Positions 1 to 13,526 of a stretch of 64,000 bases of DNA are shown here, piece after piece. The stretch's first letter is position 1, and each line of letters begins with the position of its first letter. The stretch lies in assembly GCF_044324785.1 (NCBI RefSeq), contig NZ_CP172127.1; one strand, 5' to 3'. A program made the position numbers and the translations under genes. This stretch comes from Escherichia coli. GTDB taxonomy: Bacteria > Pseudomonadota > Gammaproteobacteria > Enterobacterales > Enterobacteriaceae. The notes below the pieces were generated by a model. It saw nothing but the letters and a program-made list of their open reading frames with translations, did not search any database and was not told the origin of the DNA.

Positions 1-1
1 T

Positions 2-538
2 CATCGCATACAGCTATCATGGTATGCGCGGAATACTGCTGGCAGTACGAACGCGTATAACTATTTCGCGCTATCGAGTGATCCAGACGTTTTGTCTGCT
101 CAGGCATACGGCCCCCCCGTGACCCAACCTGGATACGTCGATATGTATGTCCTGTCGCGAACCGGCGACGGCACTCCGCCTCAATCACTACTGAATACAG
201 TTAATGCAGCGCTGTCTCCTGATGACACCCGACCGCTAACCGATTTCGTTACAGTAAAACCTGCGTCGAACCTGAATTACCGGGTTGAGGCCGTTATCGT
301 AGCGGGGCTCGGTCCCGACCAGAACGTGTTGCTCGACGGTGCTCAGAGCGATTTAGCTATATACGTGGCTACACAACATAAAATCGGGGCGACGGCAGCT
401 CTGTCGGGAATTTACGATGCGATACACCGTGACGGCACTGAGCGTGTGATTCTGATATCGCCAACAGAGGATGTGATCGCTGGCGTCGGACAGGCCCCGC
501 ACTGCACAGAAATCAAACTCAGCGTGCAAATGGGGTAG
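2..538 (+). CDS. Baseplate assembly protein J-like, C-terminal part (truncated by window start)
   Basis: Reading frame is open from position 2 with no upstream stop; sits immediately upstream of the gpI-like gene as in P2. Assignment is by position and general resemblance only. Confidence 0.5.
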   Translation, partial: HRIQLSWYARNTAGSTNAYNYFALSSDPDVLSAQAYGPPVTQPGYVDMYVLSRTGDGTPPQSLLNTVNAALSPDDTRPLTDFVTVKPASNLNYRVEAVIVAGLGPDQNVLLDGAQSDLAIYVATQHKIGATAALSGIYDAIHRDGTERVILISPTEDVIAGVGQAPHCTEIKLSVQMG

Positions 539-540
539 CC

Positions 541-1167
541 ATGACAAGTCAAAGCGTACTGCCTCCGAACGCAATAACCCCCGAGAGAGCGCTGGAATCT
601 GTTTTATCTCACGTTGGCGATCTGCCTGGCGATATTCGAATTATTAAAAATCCCGATTTGTGTCCTGCAAATCTGTTGCCGTGGCTGGCGTGGGAATACG
701 CCGTCACCTACTGGAACCCCGACTGGAGCGAGCAGCAAAAACGCGAAATTATTAAAGCAGCTGCGTGGCAGAACAAGCACCGCGGAACGCGTGGAGCTGT
801 TGAACGAGCGTTATTAACAGTTGGATTTGAGAGCAAAATGAGAGAGTGGTTTGAAGCCACGCCGAGGGACGACCCGTATACATTCGCAATTAAAATATAT
901 CTGCTAAAAAGTATAGGGTTAGATTTAGAGCTATTGAATACATTTATAGCGCAAATATTTGATGCAAAAAATTGTCGTTCATTATTAAAGGAAATAAATT
1001 TCGAAACGGGTGTCGATGGTGAGTTTTTTATAGCCGGTACACCTTACGCGAAAATAGACGTAAACGTCCCAGCAGACGGCGACGGCGGTGTAAAAATTAA
1101 CGGCGGGCTATATATATCGGGCTCACCAATTGTTAGTTTAAATGTGGAGATAGGGCCAAATGGCTGA
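541..1167 (+). CDS. Phage tail/baseplate protein I-like
   Basis: 208-aa ORF between the J-like and H-like genes; start is 2 nt after the J stop and it overlaps the H start. Confidence 0.55.
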   Translation: MTSQSVLPPNAITPERALESVLSHVGDLPGDIRIIKNPDLCPANLLPWLAWEYAVTYWNPDWSEQQKREIIKAAAWQNKHRGTRGAVERALLTVGFESKMREWFEATPRDDPYTFAIKIYLLKSIGLDLELLNTFIAQIFDAKNCRSLLKEINFETGVDGEFFIAGTPYAKIDVNVPADGDGGVKINGGLYISGSPIVSLNVEIGPNG

Positions 1168-2284
1168 AAATAAAATTTACGCAGTACTGACAGACCGTGG
1201 CGCACAACTCGAGGCCGCTGCCCTGGCGTCAGGCGTTCCAGTGGTGCTGAACAAATTTGTTATCGGTGACGCGAACGGAAACGACGATGTAACACCAGAC
1301 CCTGCACGAACAGCATTAATTCACGAGACGTATCGCGGTGATATTAAATCGTCAGAAAATAGCGGTAATCAGGTTATTTTTACGCTATACGTACCACCGG
1401 AAACCGGCGGCTATACTATCCGCGAAGTGGGAATACTGACAGATAAAGGTGAACTGTACTCTGTAGCGCGTTCGCCGGATATTTTAAAACCCACGGACAG
1501 TAACGGCGCGCTGATTTCAATCACGTATAAATACACTCTCGCGGTGTCCAGCACCTCTACAGTTAATGTTGTAGTATATGACAACTACGTAACTCCCGAA
1601 GCAGCTGACAAAAAATATTTGCAGATAAGTAAAAACTTATCTGAAATTTCCGCAAATGGTGAAACTGCTCAGCAGGCTGCGCGGAAAAATATTGGTATAG
1701 ATGGGGATGTTGCATATAGAGATAAGAGTAATACATTTACAACTCAAAACACTTTCAAAGACGATGTTTTTTTTGAAGATATTTTGATTTCTAAAAAACA
1801 AATAAATATAAATAAACCAGATACCAACTTGACATTATTTTCGCTTGCGGGCTGGTCAGATGTGAGCGGTGATTATTTAGAAGTGTCGACGCGGGGGGGA
1901 AATAATCAAAACGTTTTTTATAGATTACGCGGAATTCACTATGACGGCCTGGTGTTACTGTGCGGCGGGCAGACGTATAAATATTGGAATGAGGGAAATC
2001 TTAAACCGGTTAAAACGATTAACGGGAAGTCCCCAGACGCTAACGGGAACGTCGCAATAACAGTAAGTAGCTCAGGGATACAGAACGTCCAGCTTGGCGC
2101 AGAGGTTGCTCACACACCGGCGAGTAATGAGGTTACGTGGGACTTTAAATGTCCGACCGGCTGTGTTCTTACTGGGATATATGTTCAGGAAACCGGCGAC
2201 AGCTCAGCTGATAATATCGGCGGTGTTTATTATAAACCGATCCAAAAATACATTAATAATGTATGGACTACGATTTCCGGATGA
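1160..2284 (+). CDS. Tail fiber protein, P2 gpH-like (short, 374 aa)
   Basis: N-terminal region (LIHETYRGD...YVPPETGGYTIREVGILTD) and C-terminal motif (YYKPIQKYINNVWTTISG) resemble the conserved ends of P2 gpH as I remember it; the central region is AT-rich. Confidence 0.7.
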   Translation: MAENKIYAVLTDRGAQLEAAALASGVPVVLNKFVIGDANGNDDVTPDPARTALIHETYRGDIKSSENSGNQVIFTLYVPPETGGYTIREVGILTDKGELYSVARSPDILKPTDSNGALISITYKYTLAVSSTSTVNVVVYDNYVTPEAADKKYLQISKNLSEISANGETAQQAARKNIGIDGDVAYRDKSNTFTTQNTFKDDVFFEDILISKKQININKPDTNLTLFSLAGWSDVSGDYLEVSTRGGNNQNVFYRLRGIHYDGLVLLCGGQTYKYWNEGNLKPVKTINGKSPDANGNVAITVSSSGIQNVQLGAEVAHTPASNEVTWDFKCPTGCVLTGIYVQETGDSSADNIGGVYYKPIQKYINNVWTTISG

Positions 2285-2287
2285 GTT

Positions 2288-2866
2288 ATGCAAAATTTAA
2301 AATCATTTAAGCTTGTAAAACCTAAAACGAAATTACTTAAACTTAGCGAGTCTGACGGACAAAATGTTTTGTATCTTCAGTCCGAAGACGGCCTGGATTG
2401 GTATGAATGCCAGTCACTGTATCGCGATGACACAGTAAAAATAATGTACGACAAAGAAAACATTATTCGATCAGTTGTTGATCGCCCGGTCCCGGAGCGA
2501 GGAAATACCTATTCTGTGAGCATGTTTTTCCCGATTGATATGAGTGTTACGGAGGTTGAGTTGAGCACATATCCTTCTGAGCTAACTCTCGACGGATCGT
2601 GGAAATTTGTTGACGGTGATGTATATCAAGATGAGCTCATTGTAAATGAGCGTATTTACAAAGAAAACTCCAAAAAAATTAATGAATTAGTCCGAGAGGC
2701 TCAGTCAGCAATTCTAAATTTACAAACGGCCATAGAGATTGATATTTCATCAGATGGTGATGAGGAAAAATTAATAGAATGGCGACGGTACCTGTGCGCG
2801 CTGAATAAAATAACAGCCACGGATCTGAGTCAGTCCCCACTTAACACGCCTTTACGACCAGCATAA
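2288..2866 (+). CDS. Tail fiber assembly chaperone (Tfa/gpG-like)
   Basis: 192-aa ORF immediately downstream of the fiber gene; AT-rich; position is typical of a Tfa. Confidence 0.55.
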   Translation: MQNLKSFKLVKPKTKLLKLSESDGQNVLYLQSEDGLDWYECQSLYRDDTVKIMYDKENIIRSVVDRPVPERGNTYSVSMFFPIDMSVTEVELSTYPSELTLDGSWKFVDGDVYQDELIVNERIYKENSKKINELVREAQSAILNLQTAIEIDISSDGDEEKLIEWRRYLCALNKITATDLSQSPLNTPLRPA

Positions 2867-2878
2867 ATAGGGTACCTA

Positions 2879-4384
2879 ATGAGCACTAATTTTTTACACG
2901 GTATTCGCACGCTCGAATACGACGACGGCACAAAAGAGATTAGCACGGTAGATATTTCAGTTATCGGGATTGTTGGTACTGCACCGGATTCCGCGCAATC
3001 AACCAGTTCCGAGTTAATAACAGGGAGTGCTATTTTAAAAAACCGCCTGAAATTCACGGCGACGGGACAGGGGGTGAACGGCAATTCATGGAGCGTAGAG
3101 ATTCTCGAAACCGATCCGGACGGCTGCACGGCACTGTGGAGTGATATGCCCGACGGGAGTCGACGTTTATCAATATCAGTCGCACCGGCATCCGGCTCGC
3201 ACGGATACACCCCAGCAGAAATCGTGCAGGCAGTCACAATAGCAAACCCGCCTCCGGACCAATTATTTTTAACAATTACGGCAGTAGATGTCGAGGAGGA
3301 CGCGGGAAATGTGACTGCCTCACCGTTGCAATATTTAAGCGGCGGCAGTGATGAGGCGTTCCCAATTAATACCCCCGTACTTGTTGCCGGGAGTCCAAAA
3401 AAATCCGCTTTACTGGGTGAGCGCGGCACGTTGCCGAAAGATATTGCCGATATTTTCAATCAGGACAACGCCTTGCTTGTTGTTGTACGAGTAAAAGATG
3501 ACAAAGACACAACAAAACAACAGCAAAATATTATCGACGGTGTCAAGCAGCTGGAAAAATCGAAACAGTTAACCGAAGTCACACCGCGTATTATTATTGC
3601 ACCAGATTTTAGCGCAATTGATGCGATAGCCGCTCAGCTTGAGGTGGCCGCAAATAAACTCCGGGGGGTGTGTTATATAGACTCTCCGCGCGCTGCTACC
3701 CCTGCAGACGTTGTGAATCGCCGGCAAAAACTCGGCGGACGTGCTGAGTTGTTGCGTCCCCGTGTTTATTCAACTAGCGACGTCGGGGGGCAATCAAGAC
3801 CGTATTCTGCCATCGCTGCTGGTTTACGAGCCAGAATTGATAATGAAAAAGGGTTTTGGTGGAGTAAGTCGAATCAAAATATTTATGGAATAACAGGGCT
3901 TGAGCAGGTTGATGATTTCATTATTGGCGAGACAAACTGCACAGCGAACCTGCTGAACGCTAGTCAGGTCAGCACCATCATTCGCTATGACGGATTCCGA
4001 CATTGGGGTAACTATCTGTGCAGCCTGGATCCGCAATGGTCGTTTGAATGCGTTCGTCGAACAGCTGACGTAATTGAGGATTCTATAGCCCGGGCAATGA
4101 TGACCGATTTTATTGATCGCCCGATAGACCTGCATCTCGGAACAGACGTTGTCGAGTCGATAAACGCGTATCTGCATAAATTAGAGGAGCAGGGTGCGAT
4201 TAACGGAGGGCGTGCGTGGTTAGACGGTGAGCTGAATACAAAAGAAAGTCTGGCCGCTGGCAATCTTTATATTAATGTTGATTTTGGTCCGAAATCTCCG
4301 GCACAAACAATTACGTTAATGTACCGCATTAATAATGACTATACAGTTGAAGCACTAGCCTCACTTTTTAAAGAAACAGCCTGA
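2879..4384 (+). CDS. Contractile tail sheath protein (gpFI-like)
   Basis: 501 aa; the N-terminal region (HGIRTLEYDDGTKEISTV...IGIVGTA) and later ...RYDGFRHWGN... resemble the P2 FI sheath family. Confidence 0.85.
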   Translation: MSTNFLHGIRTLEYDDGTKEISTVDISVIGIVGTAPDSAQSTSSELITGSAILKNRLKFTATGQGVNGNSWSVEILETDPDGCTALWSDMPDGSRRLSISVAPASGSHGYTPAEIVQAVTIANPPPDQLFLTITAVDVEEDAGNVTASPLQYLSGGSDEAFPINTPVLVAGSPKKSALLGERGTLPKDIADIFNQDNALLVVVRVKDDKDTTKQQQNIIDGVKQLEKSKQLTEVTPRIIIAPDFSAIDAIAAQLEVAANKLRGVCYIDSPRAATPADVVNRRQKLGGRAELLRPRVYSTSDVGGQSRPYSAIAAGLRARIDNEKGFWWSKSNQNIYGITGLEQVDDFIIGETNCTANLLNASQVSTIIRYDGFRHWGNYLCSLDPQWSFECVRRTADVIEDSIARAMMTDFIDRPIDLHLGTDVVESINAYLHKLEEQGAINGGRAWLDGELNTKESLAAGNLYINVDFGPKSPAQTITLMYRINNDYTVEALASLFKETA

Positions 4385-4401
4385 TAATTCGGAGAGTAAA
4401 T

Positions 4402-4914
4402 ATGTCAGACAGCAACGCTTACCGCGCGTTTGCGCTATTCGTGCAGGGCGAACGGGTTTTAAATTGTACTGAATATACTCCTGTCGATATGAAAATAATC
4501 GAGGACGAGTTTAAAACAGGCGCGATGGATACAGCTATCACATTAGATGGCGGTATGGAGAAAATGTCAGCCAGTTTTAAAGTTTCGGGTTCTGATTCTG
4601 GTGTTATGAGCTATTTCGGGTTAATACCGGGAGTCAAGACGCGGTTTGAAATTCGTAGTGCGTACACAGACTCCTATGGAATAAATTTTGAGCGTATTGA
4701 TACCTACGAGGGACTTATTACGGCAATCACTGATGACGCTCAGGGGACTGATTCAAAATCGTCAGTGGGGCAATCAGTAACGATTGCGCCGAGCTATTAT
4801 AAACGAGTTCAAAATGGACGAATTATTTACGAAATTCATCCTGCAAAAATGAAACGCGTTATCAACGGTGTTGATGTTCTTGCGGGCGTCGCTCGAATCC
4901 TTCATGTATATTAA
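4402..4914 (+). CDS. Tail tube protein (gpFII-like)
   Basis: 170 aa immediately after the sheath gene; size and position match FII. Confidence 0.8.
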   Translation: MSDSNAYRAFALFVQGERVLNCTEYTPVDMKIIEDEFKTGAMDTAITLDGGMEKMSASFKVSGSDSGVMSYFGLIPGVKTRFEIRSAYTDSYGINFERIDTYEGLITAITDDAQGTDSKSSVGQSVTIAPSYYKRVQNGRIIYEIHPAKMKRVINGVDVLAGVARILHVY

Positions 4915-4926
4915 AAGGTAAGTAAA

Positions 4927-5208
4927 ATGGAATCCTTATTAGACAGTATGACTATTACGCTCTCTCGACCGTTTATTATTAAGGGCGAGAGCTGCGATAC
5001 AATTACTATTCGCGAACCCAAATTACGCGACCGCATTATGTTCAGTAACGATAAAAGCAGTCTTGAAGAGCGGACAGCGACAATGCTGGCGCGCCTGGCA
5101 AATCTGGAAAGAGAGGATTTATATGCGCTCCCCGCGTGCGATTACGATCAACTGGAGGCCGCGTTTAACGAACTGGTAAAGCACCCGAAAGACCGACATC
5201 AGATATAG
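4927..5208 (+). CDS. Tail assembly chaperone (gpE-like); possible -1 frameshift extension E' to 5288
   Basis: 93-aa ORF between tube and tape measure. The -1 frame is open from 5169 to a TAA at 5286-5288. Confidence 0.55.
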   Translation: MESLLDSMTITLSRPFIIKGESCDTITIREPKLRDRIMFSNDKSSLEERTATMLARLANLEREDLYALPACDYDQLEAAFNELVKHPKDRHQI

Positions 5209-5316
5209 TTATTCTGATTCCGTTTATTGCGAAAAAACTTGCCATCCCGCCTGATACGCAAATGGACCTGCCGTATCGGGTTTTTAATTTCTATGTAGAC
5301 GAGGTCATGAAAACCG

Positions 5317-6957
5317 ATGGCTATTTCTCAAAACTTTAAAACGCAGGTTGTATTCGGGGGGCGAATAGACCCGTCGTTTCGGCGCGGTACAACAGAACTC
5401 AACGACGCCATTCGGCAGACGTCGTCTACTGTCGGAAAATTAACGAAAAGCCAGGATAAATTAAAAGACAAAATCGCAGCAATGAAACTGGCAGGTAAAG
5501 ATGTCTCTGATTTATCTGCTCAATATCAAAAGCTGGACCGTCGGATAAAGGCGACAACGCAGGACCAGGAGGCGCTGAATACCCAGCTTGCTAAAAAACA
5601 GCGGCTGGAGAAGTGGACGGGGCGCGCAAAAGGTGCTGCAAAATGGGGCGGACGAGCCGCCGCAGGTGCGGTGAGGGCCACGGGACGGGGTATCAAATGG
5701 GGGACGCTGGGGGCCGTGGGTCTGCTCGGCGGCGCGGCTGCTGGCGCGCTGGCAATGAATGCAGAGACGTCAGAAAAACTCGGTCTGGCGAAGTCCTACG
5801 GTGTTGGCATCGAAAAATACGCTGCGTGGGAAAATATTGGTAAAGCTGCGGGCCTGAACGGCGAAAATGTTGGTGACCTGTCAGAAGAACTTACAAATAA
5901 AATCGGCGAAATCGGAAACGAAAAAAACCTGAACCCCATGTTGTTTCAAATTGGCTTGACAAAAAAACGGATGGCTAAATGGGATCGAGAAAAACAGTTC
6001 AATGAAGTTATGCGGCGTATCTCTGAAATGAAGGATGATCAACAGGCGGCGAGTCTGGCTGATCAGCTAATGGGGGGAGAGGCTAATAAAATAATGACCT
6101 ATATGCGGGCGACTGGTAAAAGCTGGGAGCAGACTATGTCGGACGCTCAAAAATCAAACCTGCTAACGAAAGAAGGGGCTGAGGGTGCAGCGCGCGCGCA
6201 CGTATCCGTCACGAATCTGTGGGGGGCAATCACATCGGGGCTGGCAGATACTCTCGGCAAAATCGGAGGGGAACTCGCGCCGACGTTTGACGCTATGCGA
6301 GACGGGCTGGCATCCTGGTTTAAAGAGAATCAAGGGGGGGTTGTTGATAGTATTAAAGAATGGGTTAAGCCAGAAAATATGAAAAAACTTTGGGAGGGGA
6401 TAGTCAGTTTTGGCGAGGCGTGCGTTAAATTCGGAAAAATAATTTGGGCAGTCGTAAAAAAACTGGAGTGGTTAATCCCGGACGAGAAAACAGACGAGGA
6501 ACAGCGCGTATATAACGAAGAATATAATAAAGCGTATCAGGAATTCATGGATAGTGGTGGTAAATATTCACCGAACCCAGGACTGGCAGCAGATAATGTA
6601 GCAAAAGCAAAAGCCGACGAAGCCGTGGATAATATGCGACACCCTGAACGTCTTGCTCGTGCAAAATCACAGGCTGAATCAATGCTCTCGTTTGCTAACC
6701 CGTTTACTGGATTAATAAATAAAGACTCAACGCCTGAATCACAAAACTCAGCAACGTTGAATATTGACGCGCTGAGACAGGCAGTCGCAACTCCAGCGCC
6801 AGAGCAAAACAATAAAATTGAAATCAATATTATCGGAGCAGCAGATCCACAATCAACACAGCAGGCTGCCGCATCGGGTGTGCTCGACGGGCTGAGACAG
6901 GTTGCGAGTTCGTACAATCGTGGTGCAATGTTTGATAAACCAGCGGCGGCGGGGTGA
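5317..6957 (+). CDS. Tail tape measure protein (gpT-like)
   Basis: 546 aa, with an N-terminal coiled-coil-like region and a Gly/Ala-rich stretch (GRAAAGAVRATGRG...GLLGGAAAGALA); position after E. Confidence 0.8.
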   Translation: MAISQNFKTQVVFGGRIDPSFRRGTTELNDAIRQTSSTVGKLTKSQDKLKDKIAAMKLAGKDVSDLSAQYQKLDRRIKATTQDQEALNTQLAKKQRLEKWTGRAKGAAKWGGRAAAGAVRATGRGIKWGTLGAVGLLGGAAAGALAMNAETSEKLGLAKSYGVGIEKYAAWENIGKAAGLNGENVGDLSEELTNKIGEIGNEKNLNPMLFQIGLTKKRMAKWDREKQFNEVMRRISEMKDDQQAASLADQLMGGEANKIMTYMRATGKSWEQTMSDAQKSNLLTKEGAEGAARAHVSVTNLWGAITSGLADTLGKIGGELAPTFDAMRDGLASWFKENQGGVVDSIKEWVKPENMKKLWEGIVSFGEACVKFGKIIWAVVKKLEWLIPDEKTDEEQRVYNEEYNKAYQEFMDSGGKYSPNPGLAADNVAKAKADEAVDNMRHPERLARAKSQAESMLSFANPFTGLINKDSTPESQNSATLNIDALRQAVATPAPEQNNKIEINIIGAADPQSTQQAAASGVLDGLRQVASSYNRGAMFDKPAAAG

Positions 6958-7382
6958 CAATGAGTGATGCAATAAACGGTGCTGAGGATATCATGCTCGG
7001 TTTGGGTGATTTCATTTTTGCTATATCAACAGTAGCGTACAACAAACTGCAACGTAGTGACGCCTGGCGCTGGGCTCAGCAAACACGATTCGGGAAAAAC
7101 GACGCATTGCAGATAACCGGACGACCGAACCCCACAATCACGATCGATGGGAAAATAAACGCGTTATTCCTTGATGGGTGCGGCATTGGCTTGTTAACAG
7201 ATTTGCGGGCACTGGGGAACTCGGGAGAACCCCAGCAACTGGTGCTGGGGACCGGGGAGGTGAAGGGGTACTGGGTTATCAGGGAGTTAACAGAAACGCA
7301 AAACAGTTTTCTGAAAGGAGGGACCCCAAAATCGCAGGACTTTTCACTCACGCTCGAATATTATGGAGCTTCGCTAGATTAA
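6954..7382 (+). CDS. Tail protein gpU-like
   Basis: 142 aa, overlaps the tape-measure stop (ATGA); position. Confidence 0.6.
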   Translation: MTMSDAINGAEDIMLGLGDFIFAISTVAYNKLQRSDAWRWAQQTRFGKNDALQITGRPNPTITIDGKINALFLDGCGIGLLTDLRALGNSGEPQQLVLGTGEVKGYWVIRELTETQNSFLKGGTPKSQDFSLTLEYYGASLD

Positions 7383-7544
7383 TACAAAATCAAGCGCTAC
7401 CAGAGCACTTAACAAGTATAAAAATAATAAAAAAAACTACGAGCATAAATGTAAAACAACCTGATGGTATTTTTTTTTGACGCCGAAATACTAATACCTC
7501 TCCGACTACTAAAATTAATTCTCATTATGAAATCCTTTTAATTA

Positions 7545-7769
7545 ATGGGGCCCCAAATGATTACATACACTACACGGGACGGTGACCGTCTCGATCAGAT
7601 CTGCCTTGCTGTCTACGGGAGAACAGCAAAAACGACAGAAACCGTGTTATATCAGGTTTTAAATTACGGCGTAACGGATATGTGTGCCGTGTTTCGTGCA
7701 GGAGAAAAAATTGTTTTACCAGAAATCGACCCCGAACCGGCTAAAAAAGAAACGCAATTATGGGATTGA
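7545..7769 (+). CDS. Tail protein X-like (LysM-like); a start at 7557 (MITYT...) is also possible
   Basis: Sequence ...DRLDQICLAVYGRT...ETVLYQVLNYGV...AGEKIVLPEI... resembles P2 gpX as I remember it. Confidence 0.65.
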   Translation: MGPQMITYTTRDGDRLDQICLAVYGRTAKTTETVLYQVLNYGVTDMCAVFRAGEKIVLPEIDPEPAKKETQLWD

Positions 7770-7772
7770 TGA

Positions 7773-8816
7773 ATGAGTGATTACGTAAATACTGGCGTGG
7801 AAGCATGGAAGCCCAATTTTTATATATCTGCTGATAATGAAAACATCACGGATAAAATAAGAAAAGGTTTGATCAATATCACGCTCACAGATTATGGTGG
7901 TTCGAGTAAACAGACAGACGAATTACGCGTAGCAATCGTTTCTGAAACTCTGAAAATTCCGGCCCGCGGAGTAAAAATCAGTATTGGGCTCGGTTTCGGT
8001 AATCAGATAATTGATAAGGGTGTATACATCGTTGATGGTGCGAGCAGTGGCGGTGAACCCCGGGTAGTTGATTTCACAGCAAAAGCAGCTCCGATGAACG
8101 CATCAAAAGGCTCTCCGACAGTTCAGAGCAAAAAAACTCGCTCCTGGAGCGACGTCACTGTCAGCAATATCGTTGCAACAATAGCGAGCGATAACGGGCT
8201 AAAACCTCGCGTATCAAAGCGGTTTGCAGACAACATTATCACGCAGCTCGATCAAGTCGGCGAGTCAGATATGCACCTGATGTCGCGGCTCGCAACGAGA
8301 TTCGATGCGGTGAGTAAACCCGCGGGCGGGTACTGGATATTCCTGCCGCGCGGCGCGGGCGAATCTGTTAGCGGAGCACCGCTTCAGCACTACACGCTCA
8401 CGCGTCGTGATAACTCAAGCTGGGGTTATTCGAGAAATGGACAAAACGGTGATAGTGGCGGAGGTGGCGAAAATGCGGAGCCAACGTATTTGATCAAATA
8501 TCACGATACAGCAACGGGGCAGATCAAAGAATTGCGTACGGGCAGTGGCGGCGATCCTGTAATCGAGTGGCCGGCAGTGGAGCCGTCGCTTGATGCAGCG
8601 AAAGAAGCTGCGCCAGGACTCAAGGGCGGTGCAGCTAAAAAAGAGTTCTCCATGACTTACACGACGCCCGCGACGCTCGATTTAGTATCGCTGACTGCAG
8701 AATGCAAAGTCACAACACAAGGATTCGGGACAGAGGAGGACCGAGACTGGACAATCAATACGTTGACGCTGACGCTGGCTGAAAACGGATTCTCTGCGCG
8801 ACTGTCGCTGGAGTAA
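7773..8816 (+). CDS. Tail protein D-like
   Basis: 347 aa immediately after the X-like gene, as in R-type pyocin/phiCTX-like clusters. Confidence 0.65.
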   Translation: MSDYVNTGVEAWKPNFYISADNENITDKIRKGLINITLTDYGGSSKQTDELRVAIVSETLKIPARGVKISIGLGFGNQIIDKGVYIVDGASSGGEPRVVDFTAKAAPMNASKGSPTVQSKKTRSWSDVTVSNIVATIASDNGLKPRVSKRFADNIITQLDQVGESDMHLMSRLATRFDAVSKPAGGYWIFLPRGAGESVSGAPLQHYTLTRRDNSSWGYSRNGQNGDSGGGGENAEPTYLIKYHDTATGQIKELRTGSGGDPVIEWPAVEPSLDAAKEAAPGLKGGAAKKEFSMTYTTPATLDLVSLTAECKVTTQGFGTEEDRDWTINTLTLTLAENGFSARLSLE

Positions 8817-8821
8817 ATGAA

Positions 8822-10648
8822 ATGGCAATAATATCGGGTGTATACGCAAATGGGGTCGGCGAGCCCGTTGTCGGCGTTCAGTTAGTATTAACAGCACGGG
8901 TCACGAGTTCACGCGTAGTAATGACCACTGTTGTAGAGCAAGAAACAGGCGCGGCGGGTGAGTACAAATTTGATATGAAGCCCGGAGTTTACGTTGTCAC
9001 TGCTAGTGCGGCATATCTCGGCGTGATTAACGTTAACCCGGACAGTGTTGACGGCACGTTAAACGACTATTTGACTAATTTTAGCGCAGACGAACTGACG
9101 CCAGCTGCGTTGGCGGAGATCCAGGAACTCGTTGCCACAGCACAAGCCGCTGCCAGTGTTGCCAGCGCCGCCGCAACGGAGGCCAGGCAGAATGCCGCCG
9201 CCGCCGCTGCTGCTGCGCAGATTTCGACGGCAGCGGCAGGGAGCGCCAGATTTGAGAATTTTGACGAAATTATCAATGTCAATACAACAGCAATGCTGGA
9301 GCTGGAAAAACCGGAGGTGTTAGATCCGGATATTGCAATAACTATCACAGAGACGATTAATTATAACTATATTGGCCCGGTAAACGGATTTTGCGACGTT
9401 ACTAGCCCGCTTGAATATAAAATTCAAATGTACGCCTACACAACAGGCGAATATTTTAACGGCGAAACAAATTTAACAGCGGACGGGAAGTTTTCTTTTA
9501 AACGTTCCTGGGCTGGTGCAAAACAATTCAGATTGGTGCGCGTAGCAGATAGTAAATGGATCACTACGCTGGAATACCCGCTGTGTATTCGCAGTTACTG
9601 GATGCCCGCTGACGCCGATCCCGAGGTAGTCAGCGTCATGAAAGACCGTTGCTACACATATGATCAGGCGTGCGCGGCGCTGGCTCTCATGGCGCAGAAT
9701 CACGAGGCGGTAGAGCGTTATGTTACGGGTCTGTGCGCCCTGGTGGGTGAAAACGGCGGCATTAAATTTTTTGTTAACCGGCTGTCCGCACAGTCCTCCC
9801 GCGAATATTACCGCACGGGTAACGCGGCGTGGGTGTTGTACGCCCTGGCATTCTATCTGAGCAAATACCCTACCGGCAGTAACGCTGAGTTAGCGCGCGC
9901 GAAATTAAACGCCGGGCTAACCTGGCTGGACGGTCTGAAGGTTGACGCCAGCGGCGACCCGCGCCACGGCTTATACATGGGCGGCAACGGTAAATATCTG
10001 GAGGACGGATCATTTGATCCGAATTATGTTGCGACCTGGTGCGCGCTCGAGCACAACGTTGATATTTATTTTTTATTCGAACTCGTTGGACGGTTAACCG
10101 ATTTTACCGGATACGAACTGCGAGCCACCACGCTGGCTGCAAATATCGTGGAAAAATTCTGGATTGAGAGCGAGGGGCGATTCCGGCAGGGCGTGCACAT
10201 TGACGGCCCGGACAACGCCGCAGCGCTGGATCAATCGAGTTGGGGCGGGATATTCGCAGTAAAAGCCGCGCCGGAGTTGGCGGAAAAATGCCGCCGTTAT
10301 ATGGAAAGATTCCGGTTCGGCACACTGGAGAGCACCGGTTATACACCGTATCACCCGGACTACGGATACAGCGGCCATAGCCGTGGCGTGTGGACCGAGG
10401 GTACAGCGGGTGTAGCACTATTCGAACGTGCGCTAGGGAACGAGCAGAGAGCTACCGATCTGATCGCGGGATTAAAACCACTGCGTAATGAATACGGCTA
10501 TCGCGACTCATGCGACGATAAAAAATACGACACACTGCCGGACTGGCCGTCGACTACAAACACCGCTTGGGTTATTTTAACATGCAAGCCGGCGGGGTTT
10601 TGGTGCGTAGATTTCCCGGTATTGGACGTTGGTATCGTCAGGTACTGA
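8822..10648 (+). CDS. Side-tail-fiber-like protein: lambda Stf-like N-terminal domain, Ala-rich linker, and an unassigned ~400-aa C-terminal domain
   Basis: N-terminus MAIISGVYANGVGEPVVGVQLVLTARV...GEYKFDMKPGVYVV...GTLNDYL parallels the lambda Stf N-terminus. An AAAAAAAAQISTAAAG stretch follows, then a Trp/Tyr-rich globular region with no transmembrane or signal sequence. Confidence 0.6.
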   Translation: MAIISGVYANGVGEPVVGVQLVLTARVTSSRVVMTTVVEQETGAAGEYKFDMKPGVYVVTASAAYLGVINVNPDSVDGTLNDYLTNFSADELTPAALAEIQELVATAQAAASVASAAATEARQNAAAAAAAAQISTAAAGSARFENFDEIINVNTTAMLELEKPEVLDPDIAITITETINYNYIGPVNGFCDVTSPLEYKIQMYAYTTGEYFNGETNLTADGKFSFKRSWAGAKQFRLVRVADSKWITTLEYPLCIRSYWMPADADPEVVSVMKDRCYTYDQACAALALMAQNHEAVERYVTGLCALVGENGGIKFFVNRLSAQSSREYYRTGNAAWVLYALAFYLSKYPTGSNAELARAKLNAGLTWLDGLKVDASGDPRHGLYMGGNGKYLEDGSFDPNYVATWCALEHNVDIYFLFELVGRLTDFTGYELRATTLAANIVEKFWIESEGRFRQGVHIDGPDNAAALDQSSWGGIFAVKAAPELAEKCRRYMERFRFGTLESTGYTPYHPDYGYSGHSRGVWTEGTAGVALFERALGNEQRATDLIAGLKPLRNEYGYRDSCDDKKYDTLPDWPSTTNTAWVILTCKPAGFWCVDFPVLDVGIVRY

Positions 10649-10676
10649 CAATTATAATTTTTGGAGTTTTTTATAC

Positions 10677-11096
10677 ATGGTCGTTAAAAATATTCTTGCC
10701 TTTGGGATTATGTGTGCGCTTGCTGGTTGTGCAACCAAGCCAGTCTCAAACGAGCAGGCTACTCCCGTTCCAGAAAAACAGGTAATCAATAGCGCAATAC
10801 TCGAAAAAAGAGATGGGACAGGAGAGGTGATCATCAAGCGTGATTCGGGTTTCTTTGGGAGCGCGTGCTTTTCCCGTGTTTATGTTGATGGTAAAGAGGT
10901 GGCAGATTTAGGTACAGCTCAGAAAGTCGTTGTATACCCAACGATTGGTGATCATGTCTTCAGCGCGTGGCCAAAAGGAGTATGTGGTGGTGGCATGAGT
11001 GAGCAGGCGGGCAAGGTGACAACAGATCGTACTTTGATGTATCGCATAGGTTACGGTTCAAACGGTGAATATGGCATTCACCCAACTGCGTTTTAA
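10677..11096 (+). CDS. Small predicted outer-membrane lipoprotein (prophage cargo)
   Basis: GGAG about 10 nt upstream of the ATG at 10677. Signal peptide MVVKNILAFGIMCALAGC with lipobox LAGC; the residue after Cys is Ala (not an Asp inner-membrane retention signal); several Cys in the mature part. Confidence 0.55.
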   Translation: MVVKNILAFGIMCALAGCATKPVSNEQATPVPEKQVINSAILEKRDGTGEVIIKRDSGFFGSACFSRVYVDGKEVADLGTAQKVVVYPTIGDHVFSAWPKGVCGGGMSEQAGKVTTDRTLMYRIGYGSNGEYGIHPTAF

Positions 11097-11253
11097 CTGT
11101 GTTGGGTATGCGATTTTATTCGCATACCCCTTAGGGCAATTGACGATACTTCCAAATGACCATTATTTTACGTGTGGCCTCGATGTTGCGCACATGAGAG
11201 TTCTATATTCTTTCAAACAGGATTATCCCATTGATTTAATTATACTTTCGTAT

Positions 11254-11314
11254 GGTCTCGAAAACCGGAGTAGGGGCAACTCTACCGGGGGTTCAAATCC
11301 CCCTCTCTCCGCCA
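11254..11314 (+). repeat. Partial 3' copy (61 nt) of tRNA-Ser(CGA), serU-like; putative prophage attR
   Basis: GGTCTCGAAAACCGGAGTAGGGGCAACTCTACCGGGGGTTCAAATCCCCCTCTCTCCGCCA matches the anticodon-stem-to-CCA part of E. coli serU as I remember it. The upstream sequence does not match the tRNA 5' half. Confidence 0.8.
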
Positions 11315-11860
11315 CTTTATCAATGACTTATCTCCCGACTTCCCGCCTTGCTTTTCCTAAACAGAACAATCGTAGAATATTCTTGAAGGGTTAGATCGTC
11401 ACTGTTTTCTGTTCGATACTGTGACATTCAGCACTTGATTCGCTATGGATCTGACAGGAAGGTTTCGAGCGAAAATCTGCAGTTATTCAGTCGTTTTCTT
11501 ATCGCTCACCATTATTCTTTTAGACATTCATCCTATGAAACTGCCGCAAAGTTGGTGGTGGGAACTGAAGTTGCGTAGAGAAGGGGGCAATAATTGAGCC
11601 AAAAAAGGAACGCGGCCGTCAGATTAAAGCCGCGGGACAAAGTCCATAATTTCCAAGAGTTGTTGAATTTCCCAGCTTTTTTGAAAGCCTTTGTATCATA
11701 CTAACAAGTAAAAAAGGTTTAAATACCAAAATTAACCTATATTTCTGGTTAGCTTTACCATGACAGATGACTTGCTTCTGGAGACATTGGCGCTGCCAGT
11801 CTGTATTGGTGAGTTGTGTATTTATTGTTCGCCGCTTTCTCGGTTTTTTTCTACAGACAT

Positions 11861-11894
11861 AATAAAAAAGACACGTCTCAAGCATGAGCGTGTC
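11861..11894 (-). terminator. Rho-independent terminator downstream of zinT
   Basis: Hairpin GACACGTCTCA-AGCA-TGAGCGTGTC, followed on the minus strand by a T-run. Confidence 0.6.
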
Positions 11895-11983
11895 TGAGTT
11901 TGTTTTATTTATTTGTCTTGGTAAATTATTGTCGTTACTACCAGGCACTGTTCTGTTAAATAATTGAAGTCAGCGCAAAAAAA

Positions 11984-12634
11984 TCAATGAGACATCATCT
12001 CCTCGACCACTTCTTCGCTACTCAACTGATAGGGATAATACGTTGGCCAGTTTTCCATTTCATTTAATAAAGATTGCTGTGAATCATTACCCATAAAAAT
12101 GTGAAAATGAGATGATTTTCGTGGTGCAATTATATGATCGCTAAATTGAATATATTTAGGGGCTTTGCTTTCAGGATCTTTACATTCGAATAAGTAACGA
12201 ACGCCTTTCTTGCCTGATTTATAGGTGAGTATTTTGTATCCATCATAATCATATTTACAGGATGTTGTTTCATTATTTCTATGGAATTCAACAATGCCGT
12301 CCTCAATGCCAATCATCTCGATATCTGTCACATAACCTTTGCGATAATAATCTTTAATTTCAGCAAATGTTTTAGTTTTATCTGCATCCGCTTTCTTCTG
12401 AAAGACGGGGTCAAGTTTGCCACTTTGCAGTAAAGGATAAACGGATTGCCAGACTCCATCCCAGTCACTGAGCGTTCGGTTTTGTACATTGGCATCATCA
12501 AAAACACCATTAGCAGCTTTTTGTTCGACCTCTGTTAAGGGTTTGCCGTGTGAGTGATGACCATGCGAAAAGGCAGGAGCGCTAACAATAAAGACACCTA
12601 AAGCAACAGCCAGTTTATGAAGACGAATCGCCAA
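11984..12634 (-). CDS. zinT: Zinc/cadmium-binding periplasmic protein ZinT (YodA)
   Basis: 216 aa with signal peptide and His-rich HGHHSHG motif; recognised as E. coli ZinT. Confidence 0.9.
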
Positions 12635-12668
12635 AACAGTTTCCTCCAGAGTTAATGTATATGATGTG

Positions 12669-12689
12669 TAATGTTATATTGTAACATAT
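12669..12689. promoter_or_regulatory. Candidate Zur box upstream of zinT
   Basis: Near-palindrome TAATGTTATATTGTAACATAT about 35 bp upstream of the zinT start codon. Confidence 0.55.
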
Positions 12690-12812
12690 AACAAAATGCA
12701 ACAACTCTTAGGAGACAAGAGAATAGTTATCTCAGGTGTGCTTATCTATCTTATTGAAATAAAATAAATTATGTCGATGATTTGAGGTTGATGACAAACG
12801 AAACATAACTTG

Positions 12813-12860
12813 ATGTGATCTGCGTAGGCCGGATAGGGCGCTCGCGCCGCATCCGGCAGG
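12813..12860. repeat. REP (repetitive extragenic palindromic) element
   Basis: GCGTAGGCCGGATAGGGCGCTCGCGCCGCATCCGGCAGG is the typical E. coli REP consensus type. Confidence 0.7.
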
Positions 12861-12890
12861 GATAACGCGTACTTTGTCGGCAATATGAAG

Positions 12891-13526
12891 TTATACAGAT
12901 AATTTGTTGTGAACCTGCTTGCGTAACCGGTTAAAAAGGGAACGCAACTTCTTATACCGTAAGGCTAAAAGCAGTACAGCCAGCCCAGCGTAGATGAGTG
13001 GCTGCGGTGAAATAATCTTCACTGACCACAGATAATGTACTGGGGCAAGGATCGCGACAAGATAGACGAAGTTATGCAACTGTTGCCAGTTTTTGCCGAG
13101 TTTTCGCTGCATCGCCTGGGTTGAAGTGAACGCTAAAGCAAGCAAAATTATCCAGCTGATAATACCTAACGTTAAATAAGGCCGGGTAATTAACTCCTTG
13201 CCTAATAACGCCAGATTATTCACGCCCAGCTCCAGTAATGCGTAACTGGTTAAATGCAGTGTCGCCCAGGCAAAGCACCATAAGCCTAACAGGCGGCGAG
13301 TGCGTATCAATAACGGCTGTTTTGCGTAGCGTGCCAGAGGTGTGATTAACAAGGTCGCCAGCAAAAATTTCAGTGCAGTGCGACCAGTAAAATGCTGAAT
13401 ATCTTTCACCGGATCGGCACCCAATCCACCGTGATTAATCGCCCAGACCAGCCAGAGAAACGGCAACAATCCGGCAAGATGCAGGCAAACTTTCAGCCAT
13501 GTCACCTGTTTTGCTGTCAGACGCAT
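12891..13526 (-). CDS. msrQ: Methionine sulfoxide reductase heme-binding subunit MsrQ (YedZ)
   Basis: 211-aa polytopic membrane protein directly downstream of msrP; recognised. Confidence 0.9.

Follow-up and report, generated by a model that had tools for sequence, protein, structure and literature searches.

The window, that is, the whole 64,000-nt stretch of DNA that was analysed, carries the right end of an Escherichia coli prophage with a P2-type contractile tail (positions 1 to ~11100). The order of the tail genes on the + strand, read from the open reading frames and their Pfam matches, is Baseplate_J, Tail_P2_I, fibre, Caudo_TAP, sheath, and tube, and the remaining tail genes lie 3' of the sheath and tube genes within the same interval. 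The features around the fibre gene are as follows.

541-1167, + strand: gpI, overlapping the start of the fibre gene (1160)
1160-2284, + strand: tail fibre gene, P2 gpH equivalent, 374 aa (PF12571; tail fibre families phrog_5075 and phrog_381)
1160-1603, + strand: fibre N-terminal baseplate-attachment domain, aa 1-148 (PF12571), common to all variants of the prophage family
1604-1702, + strand: conserved linker motif 1, aa 149-181, ADKKYLQISKNLSEI...AQQAARKNIGID; left junction
1703-2002, + strand: central fibre module, aa 182-281; most AT-rich part, ~37% GC
1893-1899, + strand: G7 homopolymer run, part of the central module
2003-2053, + strand: conserved linker motif 2, aa 282-298, KPVKTINGKSPDANGNV; second internal junction
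2054-2284, + strand: fibre tip domain, aa 299-374 and stop codon, P2 gpH/Mu gpS type
2288-2866, + strand: tail fibre assembly chaperone Tfa, 192 aa (PF02413, phrog_136, 5yvq_B)
2879-2991, + strand: first 113 nt of the sheath gene, conserved in all variants; right recombination junction
2879-4384, + strand: sheath gene (Pfam)
4402-4914, + strand: tube gene (Pfam)

The initial annotation, made from the sequence alone, had described a fibre gene with P2-gpH-like N- and C-terminal ends, and both ends were recovered. Residues 4-139 matched PF12571, the phage tail-collar fibre N-terminal domain (E 3e-30, 105.6 bits against a cut-off of 23), and the identity to a P2-type gpH (NC_070906) was 31% over residues 25-139 of the N-terminus and 45% over the C-terminal 98 residues (E 6e-23). 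A 374-aa protein with 99% identity to the fibre (P0015) was present in independent assemblies. The fibre is modular and consists of the N-terminal domain, linker motif 1, the central module, linker motif 2, and a tip of the P2 gpH/Mu gpS type. The N-terminal domain showed near-invariant columns in the six-way protein alignment and a DNA identity of 84-93% to the relatives. Linker motif 1 was invariant or nearly invariant across the six fibres, which differ in their downstream parts, and Mu gpS contained a similar NLSEI...AQ..AR.NL stretch in the PDB alignment with this motif. No Pfam domain was found in the central module, whose DNA was 95-97% identical to the phage loci L005 and L012, 83% to ST131-type SK1144, and 76% to E. 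fergusonii, with no identity to E24377A and C41. Linker motif 2 was alignable in the window, SK1144, E. fergusonii, and E24377A, with G296 invariant. The DNA of the tip, which is presumed to be the site of Tfa docking and receptor binding, was 97% identical to L005/L012 and had no identity to the other four relatives.

The initial annotation had called the gene behind the fibre a chaperone and the flanking genes sheath and tube; Pfam bore out the latter two, and the chaperone was confirmed by a PF02413 (Caudo_TAP) match of 62.6 bits (cut-off 22.1), a match to phrog_136 (E 4e-40), and a match of residues 1-177 to the Mu Tfa chain 5yvq_B (E 6e-18). Its identity was 31% to a P2-type gpG, ~40% to the Tfa proteins of Fels-2, ST64B, and SJ46, and 96-98% to P0001 and P0002, the latter of which is named 'tail fiber assembly protein [Escherichia coli]'. 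The tfa gene starts 3 nt past the fibre stop codon, and its own stop codon, which ends at 2866, is separated from the sheath ATG (2879) by a gap of 12 nt, which makes co-transcription of the two genes probable. The scan of positions 900-3200 returned one promoter-like site, fewer than in shuffled sequences, and three weak terminator-like sites, about the shuffle level; it gave no evidence that would support a separate transcription unit. Searched against NCBIfam, the fibre and Tfa, like the 608-aa protein and the lipoprotein, gave no meaningful match, and the C-terminal 508 residues of the 608-aa second fibre had no match in the PDB sequence search. ARAGORN on positions 10500-13000 reported no complete tRNA, a 3' fragment alone being visible.

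Comparison with related prophages and phages showed that the history of the segment at ~1703-2877 differs from that of the rest of the tail. The nearest relatives of the window from the sheath gene to gene D were E24377A and C41 (96-99% identical), with identities of 97.0% and 97.1%, respectively, in the sheath, 99.8% and 97.7% in the tube, and 96.0% and 95.5% in the tape measure. BLAST against these two relatives aligned positions 1-1702 and 2878-9132, the latter at 96-97%, and gave no alignment at all for positions 1703-2877, where homology was undetectable. The phage loci L005, L011, L012, and L013 showed 69-78% identity in J, sheath, tube, E, tape measure, and U, and 95-97% identity over the middle module of the fibre, the tip, and Tfa. 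Thus, the horizontal exchange proposed in the initial annotation was upheld by a segment that cannot be aligned in E24377A and C41, yet is 95-97% identical in a backbone of 69-78% identity. The nearest named phages for the separate parts also differed from those of the sheath: Fels-2, ST64B, and SJ46 (~40%) were nearest to Tfa, and Mu-like prophages, Rac-SA53, P2, and phiTE to the fibre tip, whereas vB_EcoM-569R10, Citrobacter phage Chris1, and Hafnia phage yong2 were nearest to the sheath. Neither uniform composition nor a congruent phylogeny was found across the tail module. The segment at ~1703-2877 very probably represents a receptor-recognition cassette of the late tail operon that was exchanged horizontally and that consists of the two distal modules of the fibre and the tfa gene.

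The same slot holds at least five non-homologous cassettes among the relatives, the window included:

E24377A: 382-aa fibre, downstream gene absent
C41: 305-aa fibre and 80-aa gene
SK1144: 394-aa fibre and 129-aa gene
E. fergusonii: 361-aa fibre and 152-aa gene
Window: 374-aa fibre and 192-aa gene

E24377A, C41, ST131 SK1144 (with phage records such as vB_EcoM-720R5), and E. fergusonii have the same backbone and the same insertion neighbourhood (yodB/zinT side) as the window. The fibre N-terminus, linker motif 1, and the 5' block of the sheath gene are kept in all of them, whereas homology is lacking in the distal fibre parts and the downstream gene differs or is absent (0, 80, 129, or 152 aa). 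Tip and chaperone went together: among six loci, a Tfa of the phrog_136/PF02413 type was found in all three that have a P2-like tip and in none of the three that lack such a tip, and in the window both lie within one tract of 97% identity shared with L005/L012.

On the left, the crossovers coincide with the two linker motifs; on the right, they fall within the conserved 113 nt with which the sheath gene begins. BLAST homology to the fibres of E24377A and C41 (L001, L002) stops at 1702, at the end of linker motif 1, while homology to the ST131-type fibre (L003, L004) stops at 2050; SK1144 shares positions 2-2050 at 91.6% and is then without homology until 2878. This break at a different point demonstrates modularity below the level of the gene. 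The interval of the initial annotation fitted these junctions well, since 1600 lies at the start of linker motif 1 and the Tfa stop codon ends at 2866. On the right side, homology to all relatives comes back at 2878 or at the sheath ATG, and the preceding 70 nt are unrelated between the variants. The 5' block of the sheath gene was 95% identical to L005 up to 2991, the corresponding patch of SK1144 covered 2878-2992, and the sliding identity to L005, which peaked at 98-100% over 2100-2650, collapsed at 2992. The left boundary was not sharp: identity to L005 rose in steps from 73% before 600 to 82% up to 1050, 90% up to 1500, 94% up to 2100, and then 98%, and J, I, and the fibre N-terminus formed a patchwork of 100-300-bp pieces relative to three relatives. 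This stepwise rise and the patchwork point to several overlapping events and not to a single clean swap. Since the cassette and its closest copy in the other backbone differ by 3%, the transfer was not recent, and its direction cannot be proved. The IMG/VR scan with Tfa returned L011 alone, which is 99.9% identical to L005 and hence not an independent backbone, and the contexts of P0015 were of the L005-type backbone too; neither yielded a second copy of the cassette in a backbone of the window's type. Among 5,426 complete E. coli genomes, the DNA of the window's tip and Tfa was detectable as short patches at most.

The initial annotation had rested on the central and distal fibre and the chaperone gene being visibly more AT-rich than the flanking sheath and tube genes. 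The claim stood against the sheath, although the dip was modest: 1600-2866 had 40.4% GC and the cassette 40.8%, compared with 48.1% in the sheath, 43.3% in the tube, and a prophage mean of 47.8%. It failed for third codon positions against the tube gene (GC3 0.388 and 0.392, p = 1.0) and for the P2-like tip at 2001-2284, which at 46.1% GC is not AT-rich; the low values came from 1601-2000 (37.2%) and Tfa (39.9%). Within the first 11.1 kb, 1.3% of 1267-nt segments were as AT-rich as 1600-2866, all of them overlapping the same spot, while the figure for the whole 64 kb was 6.1%, with five other regions equalling it. Exchange could not have been proved from composition alone, because the cassette is indistinguishable from the tube gene in this respect. 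All five variants of the slot had 38-42% GC compared with 45-48% in their own sheath genes, and the same dip was seen in Fels-2 (Tfa 42%, sheath 58%) and in the P2-type phage (Tfa 45%, sheath 56%). Since every unrelated cassette of the slot shares it, AT-richness is a mark of the module class and not of one specific recent import. The low GC of ~40% may thus be a property of a circulating pool of fibre-tip and chaperone modules, as opposed to the signature of one donor.

It is possible, if somewhat doubtful, that the AT-richness follows from the protein content (Asn, Lys, Ile, Tyr, and Ser) together with weak codon selection, and not from foreign origin; such an explanation bears on the composition only, and the exchange would still have happened. 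The dip common to the unrelated cassettes and to the Fels-2 and P2-type modules speaks for it, as do the very low GC2 of Tfa (0.321), an amino-acid effect, and the genes of the conserved backbone that are about as AT-rich, namely the tube (GC3 0.39) and the C-terminal half of gpI (841-1167, 40.4% GC). However, synonymous sites were affected too, with a GC3 of 0.388 in the cassette compared with 0.468 from the sheath to gene D (chi-square, p = 0.0045), and the Fels-2 and P2 modules stay at ~42-45% despite backbones of 56-58%, which fits a shared mobile pool. Protein content and a mobile pool are not mutually exclusive.

Receptor-binding proteins evolve fast, and the left boundary is a gradient of identity and not a step, so rapid vertical divergence in place, under diversifying selection by host receptors and with no horizontal transfer, might be considered. 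It is very improbable here: homology to the nearest backbones is gone entirely and not just lowered, the gene content varies (a downstream gene of 0, 80, 129, 152, or 192 aa), and a cassette 97% identical in a backbone that is ~73% identical elsewhere is impossible by divergence in place. The comparison with L005/L012 effectively refuted this explanation. A chimeric assembly of two prophages from the same genome as the source of the junctions has hardly any probability, although related prophages often coexist and their shared conserved tail genes can collapse in assembly. Both junctions are in frame with intact open reading frames, four independent assemblies (L005, L011, L012, and L013) carry the cassette and the sheath 5' block in one contiguous piece, and the breakpoints fall at conserved protein linker motifs, as biological recombination predicts.

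A dedicated diversity device, either a Gin/Cin/Pin-type invertible segment like those of Mu, P1, and Fels-2 or a diversity-generating retroelement, is just as remote. Fels-2, whose Tfa is among the closest named ones, gives some reason to consider it, since in that phage a DNA invertase and a second, inverted H'/G' pair lie between Tfa and the sheath gene. The invertase, inverted repeats, and opposite-strand tip/tfa set, all present in Fels-2, were not seen at the fibre locus of the window; just 12 nt separate the Tfa stop codon from the sheath ATG, no invertase ORF or opposite-strand tip/tfa gene was found in 1-11100, and the inverted repeats in 500-3500 were of only 18-21 nt at 76-78% complementarity. 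The invertible segment (Mu G, P1 C, or e14 P) was rejected on these grounds. The retroelement was rejected as well, since 500-3500 contained no direct repeats longer than 19 nt that could form a template/variable repeat pair and no reverse-transcriptase-like ORF was present among the tail genes in the window.

The exchanged cassette would have been acquired by homologous recombination through the conserved flanks, between co-resident or co-infecting phages, with the tip and its matching chaperone moving as one unit. In Mu, TFA makes contact with the distal fibre by its N-terminal domain, the helical domain at its C-terminus is the proposed driver of trimerisation, and the protein stays on the virion (PMC9608196). 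By analogy, Tfa of the window, which can be aligned with Mu Tfa along its full length, may bind the fibre tip and drive its trimerisation, and may remain on the virion; it would accordingly be needed for the folding and trimerisation of the tip. What is known of this family suggests that the exchange would change the cell-surface receptor, and hence the hosts, of the phage or tail particle.

Three known systems resemble the locus in different parts. The exchange of the P2 tail fibre genes gpH/gpG among unrelated phages, reportedly described by Haggard-Ljungquist et al. in J Bacteriol in 1992, is the classic case. P2 and the window have the same order of I, fibre, chaperone, sheath, and tube; a P2-type phage shares the PF12571-type N-terminus (31%), the tip (45%), and the chaperone (31%), and its distal fibre and chaperone are likewise more AT-rich than its sheath and tube. 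At 374 aa, the window fibre is much shorter than that of the P2-type record used for comparison (919 aa; P2 gpH itself has ~669 aa), and its central module has no counterpart in P2. Unlike in P2, the chaperone gene of the window is followed directly by the sheath gene, with no gap or additional gene. The sheath is only 35% identical and contains an insertion of ~115 aa. Unlike P2, the relatives of the window prophage have lambda-like head genes (S49 protease, decoration protein, and E-type capsid protein); the head module of L005 differs in having a ClpP-capsid fusion.

Mu gpS/gpU (PDB 5YVQ) resembles the window in residues 1-177 of Tfa, in residues 306-372 of the tip, and in the NLSEI linker motif. 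Compared with Mu gpU, the Tfa of the window contains ~10 inserted residues around aa 65-75, and the tip and Tfa genes of Mu lie on the invertible G segment with Gin, whereas no such segment is present in the window. The best solved match to the tip was the short tail fibre of the Pectobacterium myophage phiTE (PDB 9CUY; PMC11972413), chain 9cuy_c, which matched residues 306-374 with an E of 6e-19, compared with 1e-5 for Mu gpS (5yvq_A); the identity of the tip to a Mu-like prophage was 53%. The C-terminal stretch DNIGGVYYKPIQK.(I/V)N.VW.TI(S/T)G is nearly identical in phiTE and the window. The 554-aa phiTE fibre belongs to an unrelated large virulent myophage of another host genus, and only the last ~70 residues are in common.

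The swap of a tip with its chaperone is a known, textbook phenomenon in annotated gene families, usually linked to a change of host range. The value of the locus lies mostly in annotation, as a worked example of modular tail-fibre evolution that opens no new biological question. The occupation of a single slot by at least five unrelated cassettes in this prophage family may be of use in retargeting P2-type phages or tailocins, and the junction coordinates suggest natural splice points for the engineering of chimeric fibres.

A broader reading, which we regard as unlikely, is that linker motif 1 to the first 113 nt of the sheath gene forms a landing pad that takes unrelated cassettes (with Tfa, another small gene, or none) from a mobile pool of ~40% GC whose composition is independent of the backbone, and that the G7 run at 1893-1899 serves as a slipped-strand on/off switch of the acquired fibre. 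SK1144 has no G run at this position. The run is G7A3 in the window, G6A4 in L012 and L013, where the frame is kept, and G5A4 in L005 and L011, where the 1-nt difference in length at the G run causes a frameshift that truncates the fibre to a 299-aa product.

Sequence comparison identified positions 1703-2877 as an exchanged cassette, comprising the distal fibre modules and the tail fibre assembly chaperone (Tfa) gene of a P2-type-tailed E. coli prophage. The ORF listing and Pfam placed the right-hand end of this prophage in the E. coli chromosome from position 1 to about 11100, with the P2-type tail module on the + strand. Chromosomal zinT, msrQP, hiuH and hprRS lay beyond it, and the 12-24 kb flank had a best identity of 98.5% to complete E. 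coli genomes. The head genes of the relatives were lambda-like (S49 protease, decoration protein, E-type capsid protein).

Genes of the prophage end
92-538, +, baseplate J, cut by the window edge
541-1167, +, gpI
1160-2284, +, fibre, 374 aa, PF12571
2288-2866, +, tail fibre assembly protein (Tfa), 192 aa, PF02413
2879-4384, +, sheath
4402-4914, +, tube
4927-5208, +, gpE
5317-6957, +, tape measure
6954-7382, +, gpU
7545-7769, +, gpX
7773-8816, +, gpD
8822-10648, +, second fibre-like protein, 608 aa, lambda-Stf-type N-terminus (PF08400)
10677-11096, +, lipoprotein, phrog_890

In a six-way protein alignment, the fibre consisted of modules joined at two short conserved motifs. The P2-gpH-like ends noted in the initial annotation were retained: the N-terminus matched PF12571 (E 3e-30) with 31% identity to P2-type gpH, and the last 98 residues shared 45% identity with the C-terminus of gpH (E 6e-23). 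The tip matched two that have been solved, one from the short tail fibre of phiTE (9CUY, E 6e-19; traced via PMC11972413) and one from Mu gpS (5YVQ chain A). The 192-aa protein was homologous over its full length to Mu Tfa (5YVQ chain B, E 6e-18), with 31% identity to P2-type gpG. Both proteins belong to annotated families, and their near-identical NCBI copies carry the names “tail fiber assembly protein” and “phage tail protein”.

Modules of the fibre
1160-1603, +, N-terminal domain, aa 1-148
1604-1702, +, linker 1 (ADKKYLQISKNLSEI..AQQAARKNIGID), aa 149-181
1703-2002, +, central module, aa 182-281
2003-2053, +, linker 2 (KPVKTINGKSPDANGNV), aa 282-298
2054-2281, +, tip, aa 299-374

The closest backbones, E24377A and C41, aligned over 1-1702 and 2878-9132, with no BLAST alignment between 1702 and 2878. 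SK1144, an ST131-type relative (phage records e.g. vB_EcoM-720R5), aligned over 2-2050 at 91.6%, and its homology returned from 2878. A fourth phage, represented by four assemblies, L005 (E. coli GCA_043921055.1), L011 (IMG/VR), and L012 and L013 (Logan), had a distant backbone and, in L005, a different head module, yet carried the cassette at 95-97%. Along the window, identity to L005 rose from about 0.73 to 0.98-1.00 at 2100-2650, stayed at or above 0.95 through 2991 and collapsed at 2992.

DNA identity by segment (BLAST) to E24377A, C41, SK1144 and L005, in that order; none, no alignment at E ≤ 1e-3
J (part): 92.4%, 85.1%, 92.5%, 73.3%
I: 92.0%, 90.1%, 96.3%, 82.7%
Fibre N-terminus, aa 1-181: 83.8%, 86.0%, 91.0%, 90.2%
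Fibre mid-module, aa 182-297: none, none, 83.0%, 94.8%
Fibre tip, aa 298-374: none, none, none, 97.0%
Tfa: none, none, none, 97.1%
Sheath: 97.0%, 97.1%, 84.0% (54% covered), 77.7%
Tube: 99.8%, 97.7%, 84.8%, 73.9%
E: 98.9%, 98.9%, 94.3%, 68.9%
Tape measure: 96.0%, 95.5%, 90.0% (54% covered; locus ends inside gene), 71.8%

Thus the cassette had entirely different nearest neighbours from the other tail genes, the incongruence that the initial annotation had named as a test. The nearest named phages differed too: Fels-2, ST64B and SJ46 were nearest for Tfa; Mu-like prophages, Rac-SA53, P2 and phiTE for the tip; and vB_EcoM-569R10, Citrobacter phage Chris1 and Hafnia phage yong2 for the sheath. Divergence in place was excluded by the 97% cassette copy in a backbone about 73% identical elsewhere. 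The intact ORFs make an assembly chimera unlikely, as does the contiguity of the cassette with the conserved 5' block of the sheath gene in four independent assemblies. An invertible segment or DGR within the window was rejected as well; the Tfa-sheath gap was 12 nt, and ORFs, Pfam and a repeat search revealed no invertase, reverse transcriptase or adequate repeats in the window, unlike Fels-2, where an invertase accompanies an inverted H'/G' pair.

E24377A and C41 lost homology exactly where linker 1 ends, and SK1144 lost it within linker 2. At the right junction, the 70 nt upstream of the sheath ATG were unrelated among variants and homology started at the ATG; the sheath gene opened with a conserved 113-nt block whose end fell at 2991/2992 in two independent comparisons. 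The linkers and this block would be obvious substrates for homologous recombination. The left side was not a single clean crossover. Identity to L005 climbed in steps, and 1-1700 (J, I, N-terminal part of the fibre) was a patchwork of 100-300-bp pieces in which E24377A, C41 and SK1144 alternated as nearest relative (identity about 0.80 to 1.00), which indicates many small gene-conversion-like exchanges in the baseplate genes. Compared with P2-type FI, the sheath had about 115 inserted residues (aa 43-158), and 2993-3575 (aa ~39-233) was a variable patch over which SK1144 gave no alignment; identity to L005 was only 68% over 2961-3300 and 93% over the adjoining 3301-3600.

The comparisons show directly that the gene is modular, that ancestries are incongruent and where the junctions lie. 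For function, PMC9608196 describes Mu TFA as binding the distal fibre via its N-terminal domain, with a C-terminal helical domain proposed to drive trimerisation, and as staying on the virion. Judging from the family, the Tfa N-terminal domain would bind the fibre tip and the C-terminal helical domain would promote trimerisation; Tfa may also stay on the virion, as for Mu TFA. Tip and chaperone must match, so the two would travel together, and a swap would putatively point the tail at another surface receptor. In six loci, tip type co-varied with chaperone type: the P2-like tip and a phrog_136 Tfa occurred together in the window, L005 and E. fergusonii, and neither occurred in the other three. 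The fibre slot is a hot spot, with at least five non-homologous fillings among the relatives.

Fillings of the slot
E24377A: fibre 382 aa, no downstream gene
C41: fibre 305 aa, downstream gene 80 aa
SK1144: fibre 394 aa, downstream gene 129 aa
E. fergusonii: fibre 361 aa, downstream gene 152 aa
Window: fibre 374 aa, downstream gene 192 aa

The AT-rich dip at 1600-2866 (40.4% GC; prophage mean 47.8%) was real, but modest and uneven: 37.2% in the central fibre module (1601-2000), 46.1% in the tip (2001-2284) and 39.9% in Tfa, with 48.1% in the sheath, 43.3% in the tube and 40.4% in the C-terminal half of gpI. Equal-sized windows as AT-rich made up 1.3% of those in the prophage, all overlapping 1600-2866, and 6.1% of those in the whole 64 kb. 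Third-position GC of the cassette (0.388) was below that of the genes from sheath to gpD (0.468, p = 0.0045) and no different from that of the tube gene (0.392); the cassette was therefore more AT-rich than the sheath, as the initial annotation had it, but not than the tube. Every slot variant was AT-rich (38-42% GC vs 45-48% in its own sheath gene), and the dip was deeper in Fels-2 (42% in Tfa, 58% in the sheath) and a P2-type phage (45% and 56%), so low GC is a trait of such modules in enterobacterial phages and no pointer to a particular recent donor. Alternatively, the AT-richness may stem from constraints acting on the proteins themselves and not from the composition of a mobile pool, a reading of composition only that is compatible with cassette exchange.

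This pattern of exchange was reportedly first described by Haggard-Ljungquist et al. in 1992, with genes H and G of P2. Repeated reports since include PMC8986868 and PMC10579305. The cassette finding is correct and ordinary: tip and Tfa are a rare allele of something already known and form no new category. At the DNA level, only short patches of the allele occurred in 5,426 complete E. coli genomes or among 50,697 phage records, and a few dozen sequences in a database of 5.8 billion clusters carry it.

A G7 run occupied 1893-1899 in the fibre gene. L012 and L013 had G6A4, in frame, and L005 and L011 had G5A4, a frameshift giving a 299-aa fibre, a form recorded as an 8-member protein cluster; the difference could reflect inactivation or phase variation by strand slippage, or else a sequencing error in the homopolymer.

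At the prophage end, 8822-10648 (variable part 9133-10648) was a putative second, independent receptor-binding locus. The C-terminal ~500 residues of its 608-aa product (phrog_13714 “tail fiber protein” match) were about 76% identical to L005, with no DNA homology in E24377A or C41, where the whole protein is 336 aa, and no Pfam domain or PDB sequence match; given this variable part, the phage has two mosaic fibre loci. The AT-rich gpU-gpX gap (7383-7544) was an empty moron slot in the window and C41, occupied in E24377A, L005 and L012 by a superinfection-immunity gene (PF14373) on the opposite strand. Just past the last prophage gene, a tRNA gene 3' fragment (...GGTTCAAATCCCCCTCTCTCCGCCA) at about 11262-11318 probably represents the integration site's attR copy; over 10500-13000 ARAGORN detected no complete tRNA. 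Between the prophage end and zinT, yodB (cytochrome b) appears to be missing from this genome, 11762-11983 being 222 nt here vs ~1 kb including yodB in E24377A and C41. The lipoprotein at 10677-11096 (phrog_890, E 7e-52), whose signal peptide ends in the lipobox LAGC, had 89% DNA identity to the E. fergusonii locus, was mostly missing in E24377A and C41, and may be a moron or exclusion gene.
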